A stretch of 64,000 nucleotides of DNA from an uncultured Methanosarcinales archaeon (GCA_964566535.1 CAZMIO010000005.1:3271-67270), one strand, 5' to 3'. Shown: positions 6,123-42,358, counted from the stretch's first letter. Numbers and translations: made by a program. The notes: generated by a model from the sequence alone, not told the origin.

Positions 6123-6789
6123 GTTTATTGCTGTTGCTGGAAAAGGAGGTGTTGGAAAGACCGTCACTGCTATAAATCTAGCTTCTGCGATGCATGATAA
6201 TGGAAAGAATGTTATTCTTCTTGATGCTAATGTTGGAAGTCCCCATGTCGCTTTGCATCTAGGTTTTCCTGATGTTCGGGTTTCTTTGCATGAGGTTCTT
6301 GAGGGAAAGGGGGGAGTTTCTGAAGCTGTTTATGTGCACCCTTCTGGTCTGAAGGTTATTCCTTCAAATGTTTCTAGGAGTCAGATTTATTCTAAGCAGA
6401 AAGATATTAGTTCGGTTGCTTTAGAGTTGATTGGGAAGGCGCAGGTTGTTGTGATGGATCTTCCTGGTGCGATTACTGATGATGTGCTTCCTGCATTAGG
6501 CTCTGCTGATGAGACTATTGTTGTTGCTAATCCTGAAATTAGTTCTATAAGTGATGCTTTTAAGATAATGGATACTGCTGAGGGTCTTGGTAGTTTTGCT
6601 TTGGGCGTTGTGTTGAATAGGGCTAGAAGGAATGAGAAGATTGAAGAACTTGGTAAGAGGCAGATTGGAACGATTCCTGAAGATGCTAATATTGCGAAGG
6701 CGATTTCTTTAGGTCATCCTGTTGTGCACAGTTTTCCTCTGTCTCCTGCTTCATTTGAATTTAAAAAATTAAGTGAGCGGTTGGGATAA
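6115..6789 (+). CDS. MinD/ParA-family ATPase (archaeal MinD-like)
   Basis: Deviant Walker A GKGGVGKT, LLDAN, VVMDLP, ADETIVVANPE, LGVVLNR. Confidence 0.88.
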   Translation: MTKFIAVAGKGGVGKTVTAINLASAMHDNGKNVILLDANVGSPHVALHLGFPDVRVSLHEVLEGKGGVSEAVYVHPSGLKVIPSNVSRSQIYSKQKDISSVALELIGKAQVVVMDLPGAITDDVLPALGSADETIVVANPEISSISDAFKIMDTAEGLGSFALGVVLNRARRNEKIEELGKRQIGTIPEDANIAKAISLGHPVVHSFPLSPASFEFKKLSERLG

Positions 6790-7297: not shown

Positions 7298-7382
7298 GGT
7301 GGCCATAGTTCAGTGGTAGAATACAGGACTGTGGATGTTTAGCAGCAATCCTGTGATGCGAGTTCGATTCTCGCTGGCTACC
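7298..7382 (+). tRNA. trnH: tRNA-His(GUG) with encoded G-1 and 13-nt BHB intron at 37/38 (7335-7347)
   Basis: Acceptor GTGGCCA/TGGCTAC, D-arm GTTC/GAAT, anticodon stem CAGGA/TCCTG, T-arm GCGAG-TTCGATT-CTCGC; central BHB helix CTGT/GCAG. Confidence 0.93.
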
Positions 7383-7429
7383 CTTTTTTTAAGAATATTT
7401 ATATACTGTTTTAGACTAAATTTTCTAAT

Positions 7430-10400
7430 ATGGGATTGACAGAAATAGTTGATGGTTTAAGGGATTTTGGGGAAAGGAATGCTAATAGATTAAGGAGGTT
7501 TGCTTATTCTTCGCTAGCTTTTGGTATAGCTGCAACTGGTGCTGGGTTTGCGACAAATGCTAGGGCTCAGGGACCCAACATGTTTGTTGATGATAGCAAT
7601 GTATCTGGGATAGAAGATGGAAGCCGAGCACATCCTTTTGATACTATGCAAGAAGGGGTTGATGCAGTTGCTGATGGAGGGACTGTAAATGTAGCATCTG
7701 GTAGATATGATGAACGGATTAGTGTCACAAAAAGTCTTAGTTTAATTGGAGAGGATCCTGAAACTACTGTTGTGTATGGTGTACAGGGAGAATCATTTAT
7801 TCTTGCATTGTTAGGTGGAGAGCATAATGTAAGGGGATTTACTTTTAGATCGTCTGGTTCCCATACAGGGATTTATAGTCAGATGAGTGGGAGTATAGAA
7901 AATTGTTTGTTTGTTGGTAATAGGGATGGGGTGTCTGTAGGAAGTGGGGGGAATGTTGATGTAACAAATAATACATTTTACAGAAATTTAACTGGAATAG
8001 ATGTTATCGGAAACCCTAGCTCACAGGCAGAAGCAAGAATCAGGAATAATATTTTAGTTGGAAGTGATGTTGCTGGATTGAGGGGTTCTTTTTCATCTAT
8101 TTTATTTGCACATAATTGTTTATCTGGGAATAGTCAAGATTTTTTTGATTATACTCTTTCTCCAGATGATGTTGGAAATGTTTTTGCCGATCCGTTGTTT
8201 GTGAGTGATACTGACTTTCATTTACAACTGAGTTCTCCTGCTATTGGTTCTGGAGATGTTAATGGTGTAAGTGTTGATATGGGGGTTTATGGTGGAACTA
8301 ATGCTCCAGGTGTAAGAATATTTATTGATATGTCAATTGATAACACTTATTCATTGAGAGTCACTGAGAATCGACATAATAATACTGTGGGCGTTAGTAT
8401 AGAAGCAAACAATCCTGCTAGCACTAATGAAAATCAGTTAATTAGGGAAGCTGGTTTATTGATACCAACAAGAGCTACACTTGATCCTCAAAATGTTGGG
8501 ATGTACTATCTCGACGAAGGTAGTTGGTATATGTTGGGAGAAAGAGTAGATGATGGCCCACTTTTACCTTTATTTTATGAAGCTTATAAAGTATTCCTAC
8601 CTCCGGTCGCTGCTGTTGATAGTTTTCTAAATAGGATGAGATCTTTTTTTGAATTTATTGATAGTGGTAGAGAAGATATCGTTAGACCAAGAGATATAAA
8701 TTTAAATTCGGGCGATTATATTAATCTTTTAGTTCCGTTTGGATCTGCGCCAATAACACGTGGGCTTAGAATAGAACTACCCAACGCAGGTACTCAAGAT
8801 TTTTTCTTCAAGTTTACTGCAAGCCAATTCCCCGTACTTGATCTTGAAACAAAAATGGAATATGGTATTGAAATAATTGAAGGTCAATCTCCGATTATTA
8901 CAAAGCAGAGGAGAGGTGTGCTTATTTATCACTCTGTAGATCGAGAAATTTTTGTTGAATACTATCAAGTTGATCCTACGTCCCCTTATACTTTGGGAGA
9001 ATCAGGAGAGGTTGCATTGGATATTCCAGCATTTTCTCTAGATAGAGCTATGACTGTTGGGTTAGAGAGGTTGGTTGGAAATGAAGTTCCTGATTTGGAT
9101 GGTGCGTTAAGTCCTGCATTTAGAGTAACTCCGGATGATTTAGACTTTAACCAAGATAATCAGCCAACGTTAAGGATGCGTTATTCAGATGTACTTGCGG
9201 CTCCTGGTAGAGCTATGAGATTAAACCAACAAATGGATAGAGATGTAAAAATATTTCATCATGATGGGAGTCAATGGAGTTCTTTAGATACTGTAGTTGA
9301 TGGAAATTTTGCTTCTGCTGAGATCTCTGGAGGGGGGATGTATGCTGTGGGGGTTGAAAGAGAAGTTGTTATTGACCCAATACCAAGTAATATAATGTTT
9401 ATTGCACAAGATTCTACTCGTTCAAGTTATGAGCTTTATTCAGTAGACCCATTTAGTCAGAGAATAACACAATTAACTAGAGGTCTTGATATCCGAGATC
9501 AAGAATGGTCTCCAGATGGTTCTGGAGTAATTGTTTATTCCGCTGAAAAAAGGCGCGCAATTATTATACCTGACGTGAATAATGGAAATATTTTGGAAAT
9601 GCCTGATGAAGTAATGGATGATGTTTGGAATTATAGATGGTCTCCAGATGGTTCTAAAATAGCCACATTAAGACCTGATGGTCTTTATTTGATTGACACT
9701 GAAGGCATTATAACTGAATTAGTCCGAGGAGGGGTTTGGGACCATTGGTGGAATCCTGATGGTGAAAGTATTATTTATAGTGGGGGTAGTAGAGAACGTT
9801 CAACAGAAATAATTAATATTGATGGTAGTGAACGTAGAAGATTTACAGAGGATATAGATGGGTATTTGTATTGGCTAACTTTTTCTCCAGACAGGTCTCA
9901 ATTAGCTGCTGCTCAAAGTCCATCATATTATGTAATGGACACAGATGGATCAGGAGTTCTAGAATTATACAATCATCCTACACCTAATGCTATGAATCCT
10001 TTATTTTGGTTTCAGGATGGAGGAAGTTTATTTTTTTATAGTAGTCGTGAGCGGCCTGCCGGATTCTACTCTGTAGATTCTGATGGAAGAAATCTTCAAC
10101 CATTACTTGAGGAATATTGGGATTATACAGATTTTGAAGGATTAAGGGTTGAACCTCAGTGGGGTCAAGGAGGAATCCATGGGACACCTTATTCTTCATC
10201 TCCTGATGGGACTATGCTCGCTTTCATTGGATTTTCAACTCCTAATATGGGAATACATGTCTATGATATTGAAGAAAGAAGAGTTAGAAGGTTAACTGAA
10301 GATTTAAGACCCATATTAGGTGATATTCAATGGTCTCGGCCAATAAATCATCTGATATTAGGTGAAGAGTCCCTGCCATATGATACAAATGGTGATGATA

Positions 10401-10984
10401 GAGTAGATATTGTTGATTTAGTGACTGTTGCTAGGGCATTTGGAAATTATTCTCCTGAAGCAGATGTTAATGGTGATGGTAGAGTAGATATTGTTGATTT
10501 AGTTACAGTAGCTTCACACTTTGGAGAAATTTATGGTAATGCAGCTCCATCAATTGTTCCTAGGAGAATGCTGCCTACAGGCGATACAGTTAATGAGTGG
10601 CTTGAAGAAGCTCGTGAGCACCCAGGTGATTTTCCAGAATATCGAAGAGGTGTAGCAGTTCTTGAAAGGTTGGCACAAGTTTCTGCTCCAGAACAAACTA
10701 ACCTTTTACCTAACTATCCAAACCCATTCAACCCAGAAACTTGGATGCCTTTTGAATTAGCAGAAACAAGTGATGTGACTATTAGAGTTTATGATCCAAG
10801 AGGGGATGTTGTTAGGACTTTGAATTTAGGGCAAATGCCTGCTGGGACTTATAGTTCTCCGTTTAGGGCGCCTCGGTGGGATGGGAGGAATGATCTAGGA
10901 GAAAATGTTGGTTCTGGACTTTATATTATGGAATTGAATGCAGGAGATCATCATTCTACGAGAAGGATGTTGATGGTTAAGTGA
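7430..10984 (+). CDS. Secreted multidomain protein: parallel beta-helix, TolB-like WD40/PD40 propeller, double dockerin/EF-hand, C-terminal FlgD-Ig (T9SS-sorting-like) domain
   Basis: Signal ending ...TNARAQ; DGSRAHPFDTMQEGVDAVADGGTVNVASGRY beta-helix cap; repeated WSPDG; DTNGDDRVDIVDLVTVA and DVNGDGRVDIVDLVTVA; LLPNYPNPFNPETW...WDGRNDLGENVGSGLY...TRRMLMVK. Confidence 0.88.
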   Translation: MGLTEIVDGLRDFGERNANRLRRFAYSSLAFGIAATGAGFATNARAQGPNMFVDDSNVSGIEDGSRAHPFDTMQEGVDAVADGGTVNVASGRYDERISVTKSLSLIGEDPETTVVYGVQGESFILALLGGEHNVRGFTFRSSGSHTGIYSQMSGSIENCLFVGNRDGVSVGSGGNVDVTNNTFYRNLTGIDVIGNPSSQAEARIRNNILVGSDVAGLRGSFSSILFAHNCLSGNSQDFFDYTLSPDDVGNVFADPLFVSDTDFHLQLSSPAIGSGDVNGVSVDMGVYGGTNAPGVRIFIDMSIDNTYSLRVTENRHNNTVGVSIEANNPASTNENQLIREAGLLIPTRATLDPQNVGMYYLDEGSWYMLGERVDDGPLLPLFYEAYKVFLPPVAAVDSFLNRMRSFFEFIDSGREDIVRPRDINLNSGDYINLLVPFGSAPITRGLRIELPNAGTQDFFFKFTASQFPVLDLETKMEYGIEIIEGQSPIITKQRRGVLIYHSVDREIFVEYYQVDPTSPYTLGESGEVALDIPAFSLDRAMTVGLERLVGNEVPDLDGALSPAFRVTPDDLDFNQDNQPTLRMRYSDVLAAPGRAMRLNQQMDRDVKIFHHDGSQWSSLDTVVDGNFASAEISGGGMYAVGVEREVVIDPIPSNIMFIAQDSTRSSYELYSVDPFSQRITQLTRGLDIRDQEWSPDGSGVIVYSAEKRRAIIIPDVNNGNILEMPDEVMDDVWNYRWSPDGSKIATLRPDGLYLIDTEGIITELVRGGVWDHWWNPDGESIIYSGGSRERSTEIINIDGSERRRFTEDIDGYLYWLTFSPDRSQLAAAQSPSYYVMDTDGSGVLELYNHPTPNAMNPLFWFQDGGSLFFYSSRERPAGFYSVDSDGRNLQPLLEEYWDYTDFEGLRVEPQWGQGGIHGTPYSSSPDGTMLAFIGFSTPNMGIHVYDIEERRVRRLTEDLRPILGDIQWSRPINHLILGEESLPYDTNGDDRVDIVDLVTVARAFGNYSPEADVNGDGRVDIVDLVTVASHFGEIYGNAAPSIVPRRMLPTGDTVNEWLEEAREHPGDFPEYRRGVAVLERLAQVSAPEQTNLLPNYPNPFNPETWMPFELAETSDVTIRVYDPRGDVVRTLNLGQMPAGTYSSPFRAPRWDGRNDLGENVGSGLYIMELNAGDHHSTRRMLMVK
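10389..10503 (+). repeat. Two 34-nt direct repeats (81-nt period) encoding the dockerin duplicate
   Basis: atggtgatgatagagtagatattgttgatttagt at 10389 vs atggtgatggtagagtagatattgttgatttagt at 10470 (1 mismatch). Confidence 0.85.
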
Positions 10985-11079
10985 GTGAGATAGTAAGAAT
11001 ATGCTTTTTCGTGCAGTTTAATCATTATTTTGCTATTAAGGCTTTATAATGGATATAGCTGCTCTAGTATATATATTAG

Positions 11080-11096
11080 GGGAAAGCTTTAAATAG
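11080..11096 (+). promoter_or_regulatory. Candidate BRE-TATA promoter of the rRNA operon
   Basis: ggaaagctttaaata (purine-rich BRE followed by TTTAAATA) about 150 nt upstream of the 16S processing stem; inference only. Confidence 0.45.
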
Positions 11097-11242
11097 GACT
11101 TATTTCTTCCTAGTTACTCTTATCGCCACCAATAATACATGATTTAGATATACAAATTCTAAATTCGACCTAAACAAGTTCATTGGCTAATATGATTAGC
11201 TATTCAGATGAATGCTTAATGCACAATTATTAAGCACGATTT

Positions 11243-12851
<1,609 letters not shown>

Positions 12852-12863
12852 TTTATAATTATC

Positions 12864-12983
12864 GGGCCCGTGGCTCAATGGTAGAGCGTCGCCCTTGCAT
12901 GATTTTTTCAAGTAAGGCGGAGGCTTCGGGTTCAAAACAACCAGTTGCGTAAAGCAATTGTTGTGAACTTCCCGACGGGTCCA
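12864..12983 (+). tRNA. trnA: tRNA-Ala(UGC) with two introns: 12900-12914 (37/38) and 12937-12969 (59/60, T-loop)
   Basis: Removing both inserts gives GGGCCCG...TCGCC-CT-TGC-AA-GGCGG...TCGGG-TTCAAAT-CCCGA-CGGGTCCA; the T-loop intron forms a canonical BHB (TTCA/TGAA helix, AAA and CTT bulges). Confidence 0.93.
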
Positions 12984-13086
12984 TTCCTAAATTTCATACT
13001 TATCTTTTCATAAAAGATAGCAATTCAATATTTGGAATATTGAATGAAGGGTTGATTTACATTGATGAGACCATGCATAAATTAAG

Positions 13087-16052
13087 ATCCAAACTATTAG
13101 GTGGATGGCTTGGCTCAAATAGAGATGAAGGGTGTGACAAGCTACATTATGCCCCGGCTAGATGCACGTAATCTTTGAACCGGGGGTCCCCGAATCTGAC
13201 TTCAGAATAAATCCGGAAGGATGTTGAACGCAGGGAATTGAAACATCTTAGTACCTGCAGGAAAAGAAATCAACGAGATGCTGTTAGTAAGAGCGACTGA
13301 ACACAGCACAAGGCAAACTGAATCTTTTGTTGAAAGACAAAAGAGATGTGGTGTTAAGACCTTTCTTTATTTCCTCTTTTGGGAACCTGAATTTCTCTGG
13401 AAAGAGAAACCTTAGAGTGTGATAGTCACGTAAGGGTAACTAAGAAGGAATTGAGAGGTATCTTGAGTACTATTCACTGGATACTGAATAGGAATATGGG
13501 AGGCATTAACTTCCAACCTTAAATATTATTTGAGCCCGATAGCAAACTAAGTACAATGATGGAAAGCTGAAAAGAACCCTTAACAGGAAGTTCAAAGAAC
13601 CTGAAACCTAATAGTGATAGTGTGGTACGGCTCTACGGAGTTGTGCCGTGCGTTTCGAATAACGTGCCAGGGAGTTTGTTCAAGTGGCAAGGGTAAATAA
13701 AATGTACCCGAAGCGAAAGCGATAAGCCTGCAACTTGTGAGAGGCAGCGTATGAAAGTGCGTGGAGTCACTTGGGCAAGACCCGAAACCGGACGATCTAA
13801 CCCTGAGTAAGGTGAAGCGAGGGTAAAACCTTGTGGAGGCCTGAAGAGGTTCTACGAGCAAGTGTTCTTCTAACTTGGGGCTAGGGGTGAAAAGCCAATC
13901 GAGTCCGGTGATAGCTGGTTCCTATCGAAATTGGCTGTAGTCAAGTCTTAAGCGAGATAACTTAAAGGGTAGAGCTACGGATTGGGGGTTTAGGTTTCGA
14001 AAGAGATCGATTCTCTGTCCAACTCCGAACTTTTAATTATTGTAGACCTTAGGAAACGGCGGCGCGGGGTAAGCCTGTGTCGCGAGAGGGGAACAACCCA
14101 GACTATGGTTAAGGTCCCAAAATATCAGTTAAGTGTTAAAGGGTGAAAGGTGTCTATTGTCGAAGACAGCGAGGAGGTTGGCTCAGAAGCAGCCACCCTT
14201 TAAAAAGTGCGTAACAGCTTACTTGTCAAGATAATAGGCCCTTAAAATGGACGGGGCTAAACTGATTACCGATACCATAGACATGCTAACAGCATAGTAG
14301 TAGATAGGCATTTTTTAAGGGCAGAAGCTCCTTTGCGAGAGGGTGTGGACCTTAAAGAAATGAAAATCCTGGCGGTAGTAGGATCATAGCAGAGTGAGAA
14401 TCTCTGTCACCGAAAGGGCAAGGGTTCCTTGACAATATAAATTAGTCAAGGGTTAGTTAGTCCTAACTATGCTCATAAATTGAGTAATGGGAAAGGGAAA
14501 CAGGTTAATATTCCTGTACTATCTAAGTATGTGCGGCAACGCAAGTTTAATTTCTATCTTTTTGGGGTAAGCTGACAAATGATCAAGTTTGCTAACTAAA
14601 ACAGATAAGGGGAGATTGTAATAATGAGAACCTTATCAAATTTAGGAATGGTGTTCTTATGGGACATTCAGCCGATATCTAGAAATCTTAAAAAAGGAAT
14701 TAAAATAAATCTTAGATAACTATACCCAGAACCAGCACTGGTGCCCCTGGGTGAGAAGCCCAAGGTGTGAAGGTGTAATCCGATTGAGGGAACTCGGCAA
14801 AATAGCCCCGTGACTTAGGTATAAGGGGTCCCTGCGATTGTAGCAATGCAATTGCAGGGTGCAATTACAAAGGGGGTCCGACTGTTTAACAAAAACTTAA
14901 CTGACTGCTAGCCTGTAAAGGTGCGTATAGTCAGTGACGTCTGCCCAGTGTCAGTACTTTAAGCTCGGTTTCAACTGAGTGAAGAGCTGATAAACGGCGG
15001 GAGTAACTATAACTCTCTTAAGGTAGCGTAATACCTTGTCGTTTGATTGACGACTTGCATGAATGACGTAACGAGATCCCTTCTGTCCCCAATTGGAATC
15101 CTCTGAACACTCTTTACTGGTGCAAAGGCCAGTGATCTCCAGTGGGAAGCGAAGACCCCGTGAAACTTTACTACAACTTATTGTTGCGATGTGGGTTTTG
15201 ATGTGTAGTGTAGGTGGAAGTCGCTAAAGCTTGGTCGTCAGGTCAAGTGTAGACAACAATGAAACACCACTCTTCAAAACCTACGTTGCTAATCTCGTAA
15301 GAGAAACAGCGATAGGTGGGTAGTTTGGCTGGGGTGGCACCCTGTTGAAACAATATCAACAGGACCCTAAGGTTGGCTCAAGCGGGTCAGAAATCCGCAG
15401 TAGAGTGCAAGAGCAAAAGCCAGCCTGACTGGATTCATAATAAGATTGAATTCAGACAAGAAATTGTGGTCTAGCGAACCTCTAAATCCTCCTTAATGGG
15501 GGTTAGAGATGACCGAAAAGTTACTCCGGGGATAACAGAGTTGTCGCGCCTGAGAGCTCATTTTAGTTCTGAGCGGCAAAAATCTTTTTGGATTTGACTC
15601 TGTAGTCAAAAGTTTTCCAGTAAGTTAGCTATAGCTATAGAACTAAGAGCTTATCGACGGCGCGGTTTGCTACATCGATGTCGGCTCCTCCTATCCTGGG
15701 CGTGCAGAAGCGCCCAAGGGTGCGGGTGTTCACCGATTAAAAGGAGTCGTGAGCTGGGTTCAGAACGCTGTGAGGCAGTTTGTTTGATATCTACTGGAGA
15801 TGTCAGTGTCTGAAGGGAAGGAAGCCATAGTACGAGAGGAACTGGCTTTCGAAGCCTCTGGTCTACCGGTTATCTGATAAGGTACGCCGGGCAGCTACGC
15901 TTTATAGGGATAAGTGCTGAAAGCATCTAAGCACGAAGCCCTCCTTGAAAAGAGACACTATAGAACTCGAGAAAAATACTCGTTTAATGGAATCGGTGTG
16001 TAAGTACCAAGCTTCGGCGAGGTATTCAGCATGCGATTTCCAATCGTTCATC
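13087..16052 (+). rRNA. rrl: 23S rRNA containing one BHB intron
   Basis: GAATTGAAACATCTTAGTA, GGGATAACAG, CGATGTCGGCTC, GAGCTGGGTT, AGTACGAGAGGAAC (sarcin-ricin loop); ends inferred from the processing stem. Confidence 0.97.
15562..15652 (+). other. 91-nt ORF-less BHB intron in 23S helix 89
   Basis: Central helix GCTC(15556-59)/GAGC(15647-50), bulges ATT and TTA, intron stem TTAGTTCT/AGAACTAA; excision restores GAGCTCAT-ATCGACGG. Confidence 0.9.
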
Positions 16053-16223
16053 CTTAATTTATGCATGGTTTTTCATTTTTTTCTAAAACCATTTATGATA
16101 TAGTGGTAGCTATATTGTAATTGATATCTTACGTTAAAACTGCTCACAGATGGTCTTAATTTAGAATTTTACCCAGCTCAAAATAGAAATAGATTTATAT
16201 GAACACACTCACCCGACATAGAT

Positions 16224-16643
16224 ATGGCAAGATTATATAAAAATATGGAGATCTTTCAATTAAGCTATTCATTATGTTTAGATATACACAGAATGTTGGA
16301 TAGATTTCCTGAAAAAGAGAAAGATAATATTATATCTCAGATGAGAAGATCTGCGACATCAGTACCTTTGAATATTGCTGAAGGTAGCGTTAAGAAATCT
16401 CAGAAAGAGTTTCTTAATTTTCTAGGTTACTCTTATGGTTCTGCTAAGGAACTTGATGTTTTGCTTTCTATGTCTAAAGATCTTAATTATATTTCTGTTA
16501 AGGATTATGAAACCCTTTTTGGAAAACTAGATATGTTGATGGCTAAGTTGTTTGGCTTTATGAAAAATATTGAAGGAAGGTTTGAGAATAAAAAAAGGTT
16601 TTTTACCAAATATAAAGGAGAAAATGATATCGTTAGGGATTGA
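16224..16643 (+). CDS. Four helix bundle protein (23S rRNA IVS protein / Avd-like family)
   Basis: FPEKEK...SQMRRSATSVPLNIAEG...EFLNFLGYSYGSAKELDVLL signature. Confidence 0.9.
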   Translation: MARLYKNMEIFQLSYSLCLDIHRMLDRFPEKEKDNIISQMRRSATSVPLNIAEGSVKKSQKEFLNFLGYSYGSAKELDVLLSMSKDLNYISVKDYETLFGKLDMLMAKLFGFMKNIEGRFENKKRFFTKYKGENDIVRD

Positions 16644-37761: not shown

Positions 37762-40095
37762 ATGAGATTACGGCTAAAAAAAATAAAACCTCATTTAACA
37801 TATATTATCCTATTTATAGTCATATTTTCATTTTTCTATGGAGCGTATTATAATTTAAATTGGATAGTTGCTCTTGAGCCGTTGACATTTTATCTTGCAA
37901 AAATTGAATTTTTAGGGCAATCGATGAAGACGTATCATGATATCTTTCCTTTGTGGAATCCTTACACTATGGGTGGGCAGCCTTATATTGGTGGACCAGA
38001 TAATCCACAAATGACTTCAATAATTGGACTGCTGCTGCTGATATTTGATGGGTCAAATTACGTCTATACATTACTTGTGTTAATTGATCTGTTTTTGGCT
38101 GGAGTTATGATGTATTTACTGTTGATGTACTTAACAAAAGACAAAAATGCAGCATTCCTCTCTGCAATAGTCTATGTGTTTAATCCATGGATATCTACTA
38201 ATGTTGCTGCTGCTGGCCTAACTACGCTGAATGTTTATTGGCTGGTTCCACTGCTTATGATTTTTGTGATTAAGGCATTTAAGAAAGATAATTGGGTGTT
38301 TAATTCTGTTATAGCAGGGTTGATATTTTCATTGCTCATCAGGTTTAGTACTGGGCTTAAGGTATTTCTCTTTGTGGCTTTACTTTTTGGAACTTACATA
38401 ATAGTTTATGTTATTGGTAAGAATTTTCGGAATAAACTTATTAAGGCATTTTTTGTTGTATTGATTATTGTTGCAATTACATTTGGTACTAATGCGCAAT
38501 TCATCCTTCCAGAAAAAGAGTTTCTTGATATGACTGCTAGAGGTCATCTTTCATGGGAGCAAAGCAGTGGAGGTAAGTTTCCTTTAAAGGACTTAATGTC
38601 ATTTGTTGAGCCTTTCTATGAAGGCTGGCCCCAATTTAGAAGAGAGGGGGCTTCGAGAAATATTGGAATTGTTGCTTTTATCCTTTTTGGGTTTGCAGTT
38701 TTTAAATATTGGAGAAATAAAAAAGTATTGACTTTTTCTCTTGGTGCTTTGATATCTATCCTTATTGTTACTGGGTCGCCATTCTATTACCTTTTGTGGA
38801 AATATGTACCTCCATTCCATAGTTTTAGGCATACACACAGGGCTGCGGTTTTGTATATCTTTACAATGTCTGTTCTTGTTGGCTATGGTTTTTTGGCTTT
38901 ACGTTCTGTGCTGAAAGAAAAGTGGGATAAACTTAATGATAAGATGATTTTTGTTGTTGTGACTTTATTGGTACTGCTCAATGTTGTAGTTTTGGGTATA
39001 AGTCCATATGCTATTGAGATAGGAGATATTACGCCTGCCTTAGAGAAAGACTATCTAATGCAGGAAGTGTCAAAAGATGAAGCTATCTTTAGGATTAAAG
39101 TCTTTGAAACAAATGGGATTGATTGGGGAACTGAATTTAGCTACCTTCGTTATGGAATAGGTGGGCTGTATGGAAATACTGGAATCTGGCTGACTGAGTG
39201 GATGAATGAGTTTTTAGCAGTTGGGTTGAGGCAGCGTGCAAAATTCTGGGGGATATTTAATGTGAAGTATGTCCAGTCATTAAGCAACATTAGTGTAGAG
39301 GGATTGGAGTTTGTAGAAAAATTTGAGAAATGTACTGAGTGTTACCCGGTAAATCCCAATCTTGAAAAAATGTTTGGGAACTATCTTTTTGAGAATAAAA
39401 AGTTCTTGCCTCGAGCATATTTTGTTGATGATTCGGTATTGGTTGTTGGCGAGGAAATTTCTAAGAGGCAGACTATCTTGCAATTTATGCTTGATGAGAA
39501 TTTTGATCCATCCAAGTCAGTCTTTATTAAAGGTAAGGATATGCTAAATCAATATAGCTTTAGTGAACTTGAGAAGTACTCTTCTATTGTTCTTGTTAGT
39601 GGTTCTGTTGATGAAAATAGTGGAAGTATATTGAAAAGGTACGTTGATGGTGGAGGAGTGGTGTTGCCCGACTTATTAGGGGGAGAGACAGTTGTAACTG
39701 CCGATGATGTCAAGGAGATGTTTGGCGGCTTTAATGGAAGTTTGAGAGAGGTTGGTGATGAGAACTACATAACTCATAAGTTTGGAAGATATGAAGTTAA
39801 GGTTAATGGGAAGAAAGGCTTTTTAGTACTGAGTGAGAAGTTTTCTTCATTTCCCGGATGGATGGCTTTGGCTGATGGGAAGGACCTTGGTGTGATGAAA
39901 GCGGATGGTATGATAACTGCCGTTTATGTTGATAATGAGTATGATAGTGTGATGATGGAATATATGCCTCGAAGTGTGGTAATTGGTCGGAATATCACTG
40001 TTTTTACATTCATATTAGTAGGGATTTACTTTGCTTGGTATATTTTTGGTAGACGGAAGAAGGTTGTTGAGGGAGATGATGTCCGGAAGACTTAA
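37762..40095 (+). CDS. YfhO-family GT-C membrane glycosyltransferase-like protein, copy 1
   Basis: PLWNPYTMGGQP, about 12 TMs, KFLPRAY, LVLSEKFSSFPGW.A..DG, KADG...AV, EYMP, C-terminal TM. Confidence 0.85.
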   Translation: MRLRLKKIKPHLTYIILFIVIFSFFYGAYYNLNWIVALEPLTFYLAKIEFLGQSMKTYHDIFPLWNPYTMGGQPYIGGPDNPQMTSIIGLLLLIFDGSNYVYTLLVLIDLFLAGVMMYLLLMYLTKDKNAAFLSAIVYVFNPWISTNVAAAGLTTLNVYWLVPLLMIFVIKAFKKDNWVFNSVIAGLIFSLLIRFSTGLKVFLFVALLFGTYIIVYVIGKNFRNKLIKAFFVVLIIVAITFGTNAQFILPEKEFLDMTARGHLSWEQSSGGKFPLKDLMSFVEPFYEGWPQFRREGASRNIGIVAFILFGFAVFKYWRNKKVLTFSLGALISILIVTGSPFYYLLWKYVPPFHSFRHTHRAAVLYIFTMSVLVGYGFLALRSVLKEKWDKLNDKMIFVVVTLLVLLNVVVLGISPYAIEIGDITPALEKDYLMQEVSKDEAIFRIKVFETNGIDWGTEFSYLRYGIGGLYGNTGIWLTEWMNEFLAVGLRQRAKFWGIFNVKYVQSLSNISVEGLEFVEKFEKCTECYPVNPNLEKMFGNYLFENKKFLPRAYFVDDSVLVVGEEISKRQTILQFMLDENFDPSKSVFIKGKDMLNQYSFSELEKYSSIVLVSGSVDENSGSILKRYVDGGGVVLPDLLGGETVVTADDVKEMFGGFNGSLREVGDENYITHKFGRYEVKVNGKKGFLVLSEKFSSFPGWMALADGKDLGVMKADGMITAVYVDNEYDSVMMEYMPRSVVIGRNITVFTFILVGIYFAWYIFGRRKKVVEGDDVRKT

Positions 40096-42358
40096 AGAGC
40101 ATTATCTGTATATCTCTATTATTGTTATAGTGGCTATCTTTTTGGTTAGAGAAGGTATTGGATTTTACAATGTGATGTATCCTGGTGATGCGTTAAGCCA
40201 ATTCTTATCAAATGAGATTGTGATTAAGGAATCTTTTCTTCAAGGTGCTGTGCCATTATGGGATCCATTCATTATGAGTGGGACTCCCTTATTAGCTAAG
40301 GCTCAGTCTACTGTTTTTTCAGTTTATAGTTTGATTATGATATTGTTGCCGACACCATATTTAGCAACTACATTTAATTCGTTTTTACATGTTGTGTTAT
40401 TAGGGTTGGGAGTTTATTGGTTAGGTTTGCTTAGTGGTTTGGAAAAAAAGTTTGCGATATTGCCTTCTTTGGTTGTTTTGTTGAGTGCTTATGTTGCTGT
40501 TGAGGTGTTTTTTGGTATATTCCAACTGATGGGGATTACTTACTTTGTTTATTTGTTGATTTTTGTCATTAAAGGTCTTCGTAAGAGGAACTTTATTGAG
40601 TATGCCCTTTTGAGTAGTGTGTTTTCTTCTATGATGTTCTTTTCAGGGGCGTTTGAGATGTTTACTTTCTCTTTTTGGGTTGTACTTTATGTGCTGGTGT
40701 TTAATCTGTTTGGTAAGGGGTTTAATAAACGGTTGTTGAAGTCATTCTTATTTGGAGTTGTGTTTCTTTTAGTTGCTGTTGGGCTGGTGTTTGTTAAATT
40801 ATTGCCTGCTTTGGAGCTTGCTGAAATGAGTCAAAGGCAGGGAGCAACGTTTGATTTTGAAAGGTCTATTGGAAGTCATTTGAATATTAAGAATTCGTTT
40901 AATATGATTGTTGATGATAGGGCGTTGCCTAACTTGTTTAGTCATTCTGTTAAGGGAACTGATAGTTTGTCTATTGGTATTATTGCTTTTTTGCTGGTGT
41001 TAGTTAGTTTTGGGAATTTTAAGAAGAAGAAATATTTGTTTTATTTGCTTATGGGGGTTCTTGGGTTGTTGATGATAACTAGATCTCCTTGGAACTGGAT
41101 CTTGTGGAAATATTTTCCGTTCTTTAGTAAGCAGAAGCATGTTATGAAGGCGAAATTTGTATTTTTGATTGTTAGTGCTATCCTTTCAGGGTTTGGGTTT
41201 AGGTTTTTGGTTTTGAAATTTAAGAAGTTTGAGAAATTAGTTTATGGTGGTGTTATTTTGTTGTTAGTTGTTGGTTCGTGGGGATTTACGTATGATATGG
41301 AGATTAAAGACTCTCGTCCTGAGATTGAAGGTAATTTGGTTATGAAGTTTATGAGTTCGGATACCGATATGTTTAGGTTTAAGGCTTACGAAACAAATGG
41401 GATTGATTGGGGGACTAATTATTACTCTAAGTTTTATGGGTTGTCTGATGTTTATGGTTATGAGAACCTATGGTTGATTGATTATATGCCGATGTTTTTG
41501 AGTGTTGCTAATCAGGATATGTCAAAGATGTTTGGAATCTTGAATATGAAGTACATGACTTCTATGAATGAGTTGAACATCTCTGGTTTTGAATTGGCCC
41601 AGAAGTTTGACGATCTGGAGTGTGAGTATGTTGAGGGGGAGATAAAGGATTTTAAAGGAATGCCTTCGTGTCCTGGTTATGATGTGCTTTTGAAGGCGTG
41701 GGGCCCATACTTGTATGAGAATACTGAGTTTTTGCCTCGTGCATATCTTGTTAAGGATTCTGTTTTGGTTTTAGGTGAAGGGGGTTTGCAGTTGGTTTAT
41801 GGTTTGATGTTGGATTCCCGATTTGATCCTTTTAAGTCTGTGATTATTTCTGGTAAGAATAGTATTAATGATTATTCTTTTGATGACATTAAGAAGTATA
41901 GTGCTGTTTTCTTGGCTCCAGGTTCTATCGATGAGAATAGTGGCGGATTGTTGAAGTGGTATGTTGATAATGGTGGGTTGTTGTTTCCAAATGTTATTCT
42001 GGGTCAGAGTAGTGTTCTAGATTCTGATGTTACTAAGATGTTTGATGGTTTTAGTGAGGGTGTTTTGGTTTCGTATGTTCAAGATAATTTCAATAAGTAT
42101 TCTGCTGAAGTTGAAGGTCCTGGTTGGTTGGTTGTTAGTGAGAAGTTTTCTATGTTTCCTGGTTGGGAGACTAATGTTGGGGAGATTTTCCGGGCTGATG
42201 GGATTATAAGTACGGTTTATGTTGAGCATGCTGGAGAGGTTGTTTTTGATTATAAGCCTGAGTCCTTTGTTTTAGGTAGGAATGTTAGTGTTGGGGTTTT
42301 AGTATTAATTTTATCCTATTTTGGATTCTTATTTTACAGGAGGAAAAATGAAACCTAA
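40076..42358 (+). CDS. YfhO-family GT-C membrane glycosyltransferase-like protein, copy 2
   Basis: PLWDPFIMSGTP, ETNGIDWGT shared with copy 1, FLPRAY, VVSEKFSMFPGW, DYKP; probable start 40076. Confidence 0.85.
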   Translation: MMSGRLKEHYLYISIIVIVAIFLVREGIGFYNVMYPGDALSQFLSNEIVIKESFLQGAVPLWDPFIMSGTPLLAKAQSTVFSVYSLIMILLPTPYLATTFNSFLHVVLLGLGVYWLGLLSGLEKKFAILPSLVVLLSAYVAVEVFFGIFQLMGITYFVYLLIFVIKGLRKRNFIEYALLSSVFSSMMFFSGAFEMFTFSFWVVLYVLVFNLFGKGFNKRLLKSFLFGVVFLLVAVGLVFVKLLPALELAEMSQRQGATFDFERSIGSHLNIKNSFNMIVDDRALPNLFSHSVKGTDSLSIGIIAFLLVLVSFGNFKKKKYLFYLLMGVLGLLMITRSPWNWILWKYFPFFSKQKHVMKAKFVFLIVSAILSGFGFRFLVLKFKKFEKLVYGGVILLLVVGSWGFTYDMEIKDSRPEIEGNLVMKFMSSDTDMFRFKAYETNGIDWGTNYYSKFYGLSDVYGYENLWLIDYMPMFLSVANQDMSKMFGILNMKYMTSMNELNISGFELAQKFDDLECEYVEGEIKDFKGMPSCPGYDVLLKAWGPYLYENTEFLPRAYLVKDSVLVLGEGGLQLVYGLMLDSRFDPFKSVIISGKNSINDYSFDDIKKYSAVFLAPGSIDENSGGLLKWYVDNGGLLFPNVILGQSSVLDSDVTKMFDGFSEGVLVSYVQDNFNKYSAEVEGPGWLVVSEKFSMFPGWETNVGEIFRADGIISTVYVEHAGEVVFDYKPESFVLGRNVSVGVLVLILSYFGFLFYRRKNET

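Follow-up and report, generated by a model that had tools for sequence, protein, structure and literature searches.

A Poribacteria-like dockerin cassette at the C terminus of a predicted surface protein of a marine DPANN archaeon

How does an archaeal protein come to end in a module that resembles both a bacterial dockerin and a type IX secretion system (T9SS) sorting domain, and what could such a module do there? The question is raised by an open reading frame (ORF) of 1184 residues in a 64,000-nucleotide stretch of DNA catalogued under an uncultured Methanosarcinales archaeon (GCA_964566535.1, CAZMIO010000005.1:3271-67270; this whole stretch, with a GC content of 36%, is referred to below as the window). 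The ORF, at positions 7430-10984, sits between a tRNA-His gene and an archaeal 16S-23S ribosomal RNA (rRNA) operon, and a preliminary description of the same DNA had proposed that its C-terminal module was acquired horizontally from bacteria. The reading that we favour, with a probability of roughly 0.6, is that the ORF encodes a secreted surface mosaic, in which an archaeal front part is joined to an old Poribacteria-derived cassette that has been kept by selection and would serve calcium-dependent docking to cohesin rather than export through T9SS.

The cassette and its relatives

The tail of the protein opens with a type I dockerin, the two calcium loops of which have the canonical form D-x-N-x-D-x-x-x-D-x-x-D followed by a helix (DTNGDDRVDIVD at residue 985 and DVNGDGRVDIVD at residue 1012); it scores 30 bits against the curated cut-off of 22.9 for Dockerin_1 (PF00404) over residues 984-1028. 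AAPS and a two-helix linker come next, and the protein closes with the LLPNYPNPFNPETW motif and an immunoglobulin (Ig)-like beta-sandwich that is recognized by FlgD_ig (PF13860; 34 bits against 27, residues 1110-1171); a C-terminal membrane anchor is absent. All strings that the preliminary description had quoted from this region are present in the translation, namely DTNGDDRVDIVDLVTVA (residue 985), DVNGDGRVDIVDLVTVA (residue 1012), AAPS, WLEEAR and RRGVAVLERL, as well as LLPNYPNPFNPETWMPFELA, WDGRNDLGENVGSGLY and TRRMLMVK. The tail model that AlphaFold2 (AF2) produced from 29 family sequences, with a mean predicted local distance difference test score (pLDDT) of 81, has a helix after each dockerin loop (pLDDT about 90), a helical hairpin for the linker (residues 1051-1063 and 1069-1085, again at about 90), a low-confidence LLPNYPNPFNP stretch and a beta-sandwich (tail residues 136-210), for which Foldseek returned Ig domains of FlgD (6e-5) and the PorU and PorZ C-terminal domains (about 7e-4). 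The family profile also matched solved cellulosomal dockerins (2y3n_B at 3e-10) and FlgD. Upstream of the dockerin, models of the PD40/TolB/DPPIV-like propeller match residues ~654-900 below threshold. An assignment to the TolB equivalog itself (TIGR02800) was rejected, at 50 bits against 343 and with no Tol-Pal context, the PD40 propeller fold alone being held in common.

At the DNA level, the two dockerin repeats form a direct repeat (10388-10463 and 10469-10544, 75% identity over 76 nt) in which 33 of the first 34 nt agree, and both repeats depart from the family consensus in the same way (RVDIVDLVTVA). Such parallel departure would fit concerted evolution, or the strong AT codon bias might suffice to explain it.

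As the preliminary description had supposed, a very large family is marked at its C terminus by the dockerin-linker-PNYPNPFNPETW module, and all search hits that bear an organism name are Candidatus Poribacteria. With the last 212 residues as query, 922 proteins were retrieved, the best at about 50% identity over about 95% of the query (E about 1e-57); archaeal proteins are not among the top hits, and in 119 of the first 120 the match runs to the very last residue. Identity between the archaeal tail and the family is 43-52% over 94-100% of the 212 residues, compared with 39-100% (median 57%) among the family members themselves. A scan of GTDB species-representative genomes with the family alignment gave at least 599 matching stretches. 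Among the matches listed, the full-length module was confined to metagenome-assembled genomes (MAGs) of Poribacteria, two MAGs named 'uncultured bacterium' and, weakly (31%), one of Gemmatimonadota; matches to the last ~100 residues only (36-49%) fell in the T9SS-bearing FCB phyla Marinimicrobia, Ignavibacteria, Calditrichota, Bacteroidota, Cloacimonadota, Zixibacteria and KSB1, and there were no archaea. When 1.84 billion cluster representatives were searched exhaustively with phmmer, 1,756 were found at E ≤ 1e-30, rising to 20,950 at E ≤ 1e-10 and to 164,141 at E ≤ 0.001. Because the best full-module identity was 54% (the maximum of the metagenome scan, 57%, was a partial match), nothing sampled so far is closely related to the archaeal copy. 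Metagenome loci of low GC that bear the module, L099 for instance, proved to be bacterial, with xanthine-dehydrogenase-like subunits and PhyH as neighbours. The archaeal gene is a member of the family by sequence and not by host, its 16S and 23S genes and its neighbours being archaeal.

Part of this family has been noticed before: many Poribacterial WD40 proteins were reported to carry a TIGR04183-like domain, and the structural genes of Por secretion were not found in Poribacterial genomes (Kamke et al. 2014, PMC3909097). In the literature searched we found no description of a dockerin in Poribacteria, and nothing on DPANN and T9SS, or on TIGR04183 in archaea, that describes a protein of this kind.

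The likeness extends upstream of the dockerin. With residues 648-1184 as query, proteins were recovered that cover 83-97% of it at 32-34% identity and carry PD40/Tricorn/DPPIV_N, dockerin and FlgD_ig domains; two of them, P0174 and P0227, both named Poribacteria, have PD40, dockerin and FlgD_ig as in the archaeal protein. Another, P0171 (509 residues), aligns in one high-scoring segment pair to residues 666-1184 at 34% identity (about 51% in the tail), and since it does so in one piece, the acquired unit appears to be the propeller plus the tail, some 520-540 residues. P0171 and its relative P0182 lie on marine contigs of 66% GC, with bacterial neighbours, among them a sulfatase, FlgD_ig-tailed FG-GAP and DUF3160 proteins, a radical SAM protein and a beta-lactamase, while P0173 adjoins a TonB-dependent receptor. 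In a neighbour-joining (NJ) tree of 261 tails, the archaeal tail groups with P0173 (61% bootstrap) among PD40-type and named Poribacterial sequences, and it fell outside the family radiation in none of 100 bootstrap replicates.

The front of the protein has other relations. Residues 1-972 as query gave four hits in total, of which one was good: P0151, a protein of 1114 residues that is 46% identical over residues 31-647 and 54% identical in the beta-helix region. Past this homology, P0151 runs straight into a generic tail, LLQNYPNPFYQTTTIRY, and lacks the propeller, the dockerin and the linker. Its tail, 31% identical to that of the ORF, passes TIGR04183 at 30.8 against 23, so that a T9SS-type tail alone is not unique to this archaeon. 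The contig of P0151 (L005), a 35%-GC TARA mesopelagic scaffold, is assigned to another marine archaeon because it encodes an archaeal flap endonuclease (FEN-1), replication factor A (RPA) and Trm5b. The same contig holds a bacterial-type prolipoprotein diacylglyceryl transferase (Lgt, 236 bits) at L005:4941-5723, P0151 itself being at L005:7925-11269. T9SS-type tails and bacterial lipoprotein machinery may be commoner in marine DPANN archaea than has been described.

Since the front part is absent from all 139 best tail-bearing representatives, the protein is a mosaic with its seam at residues ~647-666, and this is also where P0151 switches to its simple tail. The preliminary description had seen a bacterial module fused to a body made of beta-helix, ZU5-like and propeller parts. 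The fusion to an archaeal-type beta-helix front is borne out, whereas the propeller belongs to the cassette, and the ZU5-like domain finds no support: the middle region (residues 291-647) gave no Pfam hit at E ≤ 1 and no PDB sequence hit, and its AF2 model reached a pLDDT of only 35. The coordinates given in that description, 9460-10984, fit the extent of the cassette better than its own assignment of the propeller to the body. The RRF of the leader, also remarked on there, is at residues 21-23 and is followed by a hydrophobic stretch and ARA/Q. In full the leader runs LRRFAY, SSLAFGIAATGAGFAT and NARA/Q, which matches the consensus of the twin-arginine translocation (Tat) pathway, (S/T)RRxFLK, in part only, and neither TatA nor TatC was found among the ~20 window ORFs scanned.

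Origin and possible role of the cassette

Complete archaeal 16S (11350-12810) and 23S (13077-16062) genes, identified with Rfam, lie directly downstream of the ORF, whose stop is 365 nt 5' of the 16S gene, and the host is therefore an archaeon. This DNA also occurs as contig JASMFX010000059.1 of assembly GCA_030751555.1, and the product of a neighbouring gene falls in a cluster, at ≥90% identity, with a member labelled Candidatus Woesearchaeota archaeon (MDP7179741.1). The host is a tiny marine water-column DPANN archaeon that bears the NCBI label Candidatus Woesearchaeota, and the stretch occurs in no fewer than 20 runs of seawater or marine metagenomes, which come from at least 14 studies.

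The most likely source of the cassette is a Poribacteria-like bacterium, by way of an old cross-domain transfer, as judged from sequence comparison. An identity of about 50% for the tail and of 34% for the cassette as a whole, GC content at third codon positions (GC3) like that of the host, and the lack of att-like repeats or an integrase all speak for an old event under selection; GC3 of the archaeal gene is ~0.2, whereas donor-type loci have 40-68% GC. A movement from Poribacteria to the archaeon is suggested by the hundreds of paralogues in that phylum as against one archaeal gene nested within them. A recent transfer is ruled out by the uniform, host-like GC3. The tRNA-His gene was considered as an integration site and rejected, since the 3' end of the tRNA is not repeated in att-like form downstream and the neighbouring genes include no integrase. 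No empty tRNA-His site was found by exact-protein look-up, which reaches near-identical strains only, and a look-up with the downstream TsaD gave no match. Of the 77 positions that are conserved in at least 90% of Poribacterial tails, 67 are kept in the archaeal tail, both calcium loops included, in spite of the ~50% divergence and the codon amelioration, which argues for selection on the module.

We propose that the archaeal front (signal peptide, beta-helix and middle region, residues 1-647) was joined to the cassette (residues ~666-1184) at the domain boundary where P0151 bears its simple tail, and that purifying selection would have acted on it thereafter. The protein would be exported via Sec or Tat. 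Its dockerin, with both calcium loops intact, may then bind a cohesin-type partner, and such binding could tether or cross-link the beta-helix/propeller protein at a cell surface, while the terminal beta-sandwich would act as a structural or binding Ig domain and not as a signal for type IX secretion.

Several observations weigh against this proposal. A search of the 64-kb window for a cohesin gave none, and none of the RNA runs searched for the gene contains it. The closest Poribacterial cassette is just 34% identical overall and about 51% in the tail; the deeper nodes of the NJ tree are weak (8-9% bootstrap); and, as most of the 1,756 representatives have no taxonomic label, the description of the module as Poribacteria-specific rests on the named subset and the genome scan. 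The archaeal tail also misses the curated cut-off of TIGR04183 (20.3 against 23), which its relatives P0001, P0035, P0171 and P0151 exceed. The other model of T9SS sorting domains, PF18962, likewise scores under its cut-off (17 against 27).

Some of these observations would suit a more modest view, in which the module is a neutral leftover or a mere spacer: activity would reside in the beta-helix and the propeller, and dockerin and tail would bind nothing specific. The missing cohesin, the score under TIGR04183, the lack of an RNA run holding the gene and its standing as the single dockerin-tail gene within the window could all be so explained. Yet a module without function would hardly be expected to keep 67 of 77 highly conserved positions and both calcium loops intact after ~50% divergence and complete codon amelioration, and AF2 is confident for all three of its sub-domains. 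We regard this view as rather unlikely.

A bolder variant concerns the partner of the dockerin; a bacterial partner or host, or decoy binding to cohesins, had been suggested in the preliminary description. Among the relatives are proteins of ~350 residues of Poribacterial type that carry cohesin, dockerin and tail in one chain (P0021, P0025, P0036, P0043, P0049, P0052, P0080, P0088, P0089, P0110 and P0112), for which no description was found in the literature searched; their cohesins exceed the Pfam threshold. By their domain order they could polymerise head-to-tail into a surface lattice, and the abundance of such small proteins in the donor family suggests a self-linking lattice on Poribacterial cells. 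DPANN archaea are generally episymbionts, and the archaeon might be attached to pelagic Poribacteria, its borrowed dockerin plugging by mimicry into cohesin-bearing surface proteins, with the gene as a mark of the host. In line with this, the closest cassette is carried by pelagic Poribacteria, and the seawater runs of the archaeon hold dozens of GC-rich contigs with the NYPNPFNPETW motif. [quoted passage not shown] Against it, the pelagic Poribacterium L038 is absent from four runs with the archaeon and the archaeon from four runs with L038; the transfer is old, and the contact residues of the dockerin are off the family consensus (DIVDL instead of NILDL); and just one such gene was seen. Host docking of this kind is accordingly unlikely, and that this widespread marine Woesearchaeote is an episymbiont of pelagic Poribacteria with a captured dockerin inserted into the cohesin-dockerin lattice of its host is, if anything, more doubtful still. 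If it were true, a DPANN archaeon would have a bacterial host that it recognises via molecular mimicry, and the gene would be a sequence-level marker for hosts of uncultured DPANN archaea.

The favoured reading also presupposes a Poribacterial donor. The module could instead have come from another, unsampled bacterial group, have moved from archaea to Poribacteria, or belong to an old shared family. This would agree with the best identity of only 54%, with the many family members that are unlabelled metagenome proteins, with the full-length match at 31% in one Gemmatimonadota genome and with the existence of a second archaeal protein, P0151, with a T9SS-type tail. However, among the matches listed, labelled full-module hits are all Poribacteria apart from that Gemmatimonadota genome, and hundreds of paralogues in sponge-associated and pelagic Poribacteria stand against one gene in one archaeal species. 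Moreover, the search of 1.84 billion representatives gave no archaeal relative above 54% identity, the archaeal tail is nested inside the radiation, and the tail of P0151 is of the generic FCB type, without dockerin and linker. Such an origin is quite improbable in our view.

The locus is real and not an assembly artefact. The exact protein with both flanks is present on 8 contigs (NCBI, JGI, ENA and Logan). The DNA of the gene is 100% identical to the window in four other assemblies, that is, on all four contigs fetched; over window positions 1-20984, two of these match at 99.74% identity, and the two shorter ones match at 100%. An identical upstream NAC gene was found on 22 contigs, from at least 9 samples, and the large gene comes after it wherever the contig is long enough. 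The preliminary description had named 7383-7430 and 10985-11240 as places where a chimeric join might show; none was detected, as single Logan contigs that start at 6500 or 6823 and end at 11378 cross both gene junctions with even depth, and the assembly breaks solely at the start of the conserved 16S gene. The four parts of the gene each have a GC3 of 0.19-0.22. That a bacterial fragment was wrongly joined to an archaeal contig, or that the MAG is contaminated, as the bacterial-type tail and the break at 16S might have hinted, is hardly credible in view of identical DNA and context in independent assemblies, junctions spanned at uniform depth, host-like GC3 throughout, a TATA-like archaeal promoter 5' of the gene and a front part homologous to a protein of another archaeal contig.

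To our knowledge, archaea have neither an outer membrane nor T9SS, and for want of an outer membrane the tail would not be a T9SS signal in this archaeon. The machinery (PorV, PorU, SprA, GldKLMN) was not found among the window ORFs scanned. The motif of T9SS type, a sandwich fold like that of the PorU and PorZ C-terminal domains and the relatives that pass TIGR04183 could be taken to mean that the protein is T9SS cargo with a working signal, but there is next to no chance of this: the tail is under the TIGR04183 cut-off, T9SS is described as an outer-membrane machine of the FCB superphylum (PMC12421860), and Poribacteria are reported to have no detectable Por genes (PMC3909097). The tail is apparently not a T9SS signal in Poribacteria either.

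Features of the locus and its surroundings

The features of the gene and its immediate flanks are collected in Table 1. The start of the gene is indeed 47 nt past the tRNA-His, as first described, with the ATG at 7430 and the end of the tRNA, according to ARAGORN, at 7383. The length of the tRNA gene makes a short intron probable, and the anticodon at position 33 implies that it follows the anticodon loop. The TTTATATA element, from its sequence and position, may be the archaeal promoter of a leaderless or short-leader mRNA.

Table 1. Features at and around the dockerin-tail gene (positions counted from the first letter of the window)
Feature	Position	Strand	Remarks
tRNA-His, anticodon GTG	7299..7383	+	85 nt; ARAGORN; Rfam tRNA 58.6 bits; T-run 3' of tRNA
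TATA-box-like TTTATATA	7397..7404	+	~25 nt 5' of ATG; sequence inspection
Whole ORF	7430..10984	+	1184 residues plus stop; secreted or surface multidomain protein
Predicted signal peptide, residues 1-46	7430..7567	+	Charged long n-region, R21-R22-F23, hydrophobic core at residues 26-42, ARA/Q; sequence inspection
Right-handed parallel beta-helix, residues ~47-290	7568..8299	+	NosD/pectate lyase-like; Pfam Beta_helix 29.5 bits against cut-off 25.9, residues 133-236
Middle region, residues 291-647	8300..9370	+	Common only to the ORF and archaeal P0151; 43% identity
PD40/TolB-like beta-propeller, residues 648-975	9371..10354	+	TIGR02800 E = 1.6e-13, below threshold
Type I dockerin, two 24-residue Ca-binding repeats, residues 985-1008 and 1012-1035	10379..10534	+	Pfam Dockerin_1
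AAPS and conserved two-helix linker (WLEEAR ... RRGVAVLERL)	10535..10702	+	Specific to the Poribacterial family; conserved columns W, A, G, L, L
C-terminal domain, residues 1092-1184	10703..10981	+	LLPNYPNPFNPETW motif, then Ig-like beta-sandwich of the FlgD_ig / T9SS type A kind
16S - tRNA-like - 23S operon	11350..16062	+	Rfam RF01959 1444 bits, RF02540 2567 bits

All 53 differences between the window and contig L001, which is identical elsewhere, fall inside the rRNA genes, at 12719-12734 in the 3' part of 16S and at 15173-15370, about 200 nt of 23S; their clustering suggests micro-heterogeneity of the rRNA or cross-assembly of rRNA from related organisms. In the 16S-23S spacer, a tRNA-like element at 12864-12934 scores exactly at the Rfam gathering threshold (29 bits) and is not called by ARAGORN. 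Just upstream of 16S, a contig seen in four runs joins position 11163 to 11352 and skips 188 nt; its depth is ~5 and its short side has just 21 letters, and this could reflect a variant spacer or a short match by chance. Within the gene, other short contigs from these metagenomes match parts of the tail at ≥95% and then diverge at positions 10102, 10463 and 10735 (runs X1-X3), one of them continuing in AT-rich codons into a generic T9SS-type tail, ...STTINYELS; these may be paralogues or unrelated AT-rich tail genes. One protein variant, P0124, differs by a single residue.

Right 3' of the 23S gene, the ORF at 16224-16643 belongs to the '23S rRNA-intervening sequence protein' family (PF05635; from the hits for L001). 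Farther downstream, positions 24118-45449 hold a large surface-glycan cluster that encodes an NAD-dependent epimerase, a PfkB kinase, GT2 and GT9 glycosyltransferases, two UDP-GlcNAc 2-epimerases, radical SAM enzymes and methyltransferases. Two adjoining ORFs of ~775 residues each, at 37762-42358, have no Pfam match.

Comparison with known systems

The nearest counterparts of the archaeal protein are the Poribacterial proteins annotated as 'dockerin type I' or 'T9SS type A sorting domain-containing' (such as P0171, P0174, P0227, P0032 and P0035), with which it shares a C-terminal unit, the order of its parts and their extreme C-terminal position: two dockerin repeats, AAPS, the two-helix linker, LLPNYPNPFNPETW and the Ig-like sandwich, the PD40 subgroup aligning over residues 666-1184. 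It differs from them in its archaeal host, in its N-terminal 647 residues, which occur in none of the 139 best representatives, in an identity of at most 54%, in a GC3 of 0.2 as against loci of 40-68% GC, and in dockerin repeats that read RVDIVDL where the consensus has VVNILDL. The archaeal P0151 is alike in its front (46% over residues 31-647), in being a large protein of secreted type and in ending with a T9SS-type tail; it has an extra N-terminal part of 377 residues, no propeller, dockerin or linker, a generic FCB tail (31% identical) and another genomic position.

With the type I dockerins of cellulosomes (2y3n chain B, 6kg9, 1daq), the protein has in common the duplicated calcium loop of EF-hand type, 22-24 residues long with its helix, and the profile match reaches 3e-10. 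Unlike these, it has no cellulosome context and no glycoside hydrolase, and its dockerin is followed by the linker and Ig tail instead of ending the protein. The FlgD Ig-like domain (PF13860; 7eh9, 3osv) is the best match of residues 1110-1171 both in Pfam and in fold; as there is no flagellar context, FlgD_ig is here the label of a fold and not of a function. The T9SS type A domain (TIGR04183/PF18962; PorU 6za2, PorZ 5m11) is also C-terminal, with NYPNPFNP, a beta-sandwich of ~90 residues and a fold match at E ~7e-4, whereas the archaeal tail is under both cut-offs, its host lacks an outer membrane and the phylum of its nearest subfamily is reported to lack T9SS genes (PMC3909097). T9SS-type domains are kept in this archaeon, in the archaeon of P0151 and, as reported, in Poribacteria, all apparently unable to run T9SS, which suggests a second role of these domains that is independent of secretion. 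A large Poribacterial family with cohesin, dockerin and this tail is documented here; its dockerin component is without description in the literature searched, where Kamke et al. 2014 (PMC3909097) give a partial account, as WD40 plus TIGR04183.

The cohesin-dockerin adhesins of ANME and SRB are comparable as non-cellulosomal dockerins on archaeal surface proteins, and transfer between the partners and a role in cell-cell attachment have been suggested for them (PMC10553843); the lineages and the habitat are different, and the window of the present archaeon contains no cohesin. The archaeal protein described here is of a known kind, as a surface protein with a non-cellulosomal dockerin and as a probable case of interdomain transfer into DPANN; what is unexpected is its host. 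We know of no established host or lifestyle for the marine Woesearchaeota, and a docking module otherwise almost confined to one bacterial phylum provides a modest but concrete and testable lead on how they attach.

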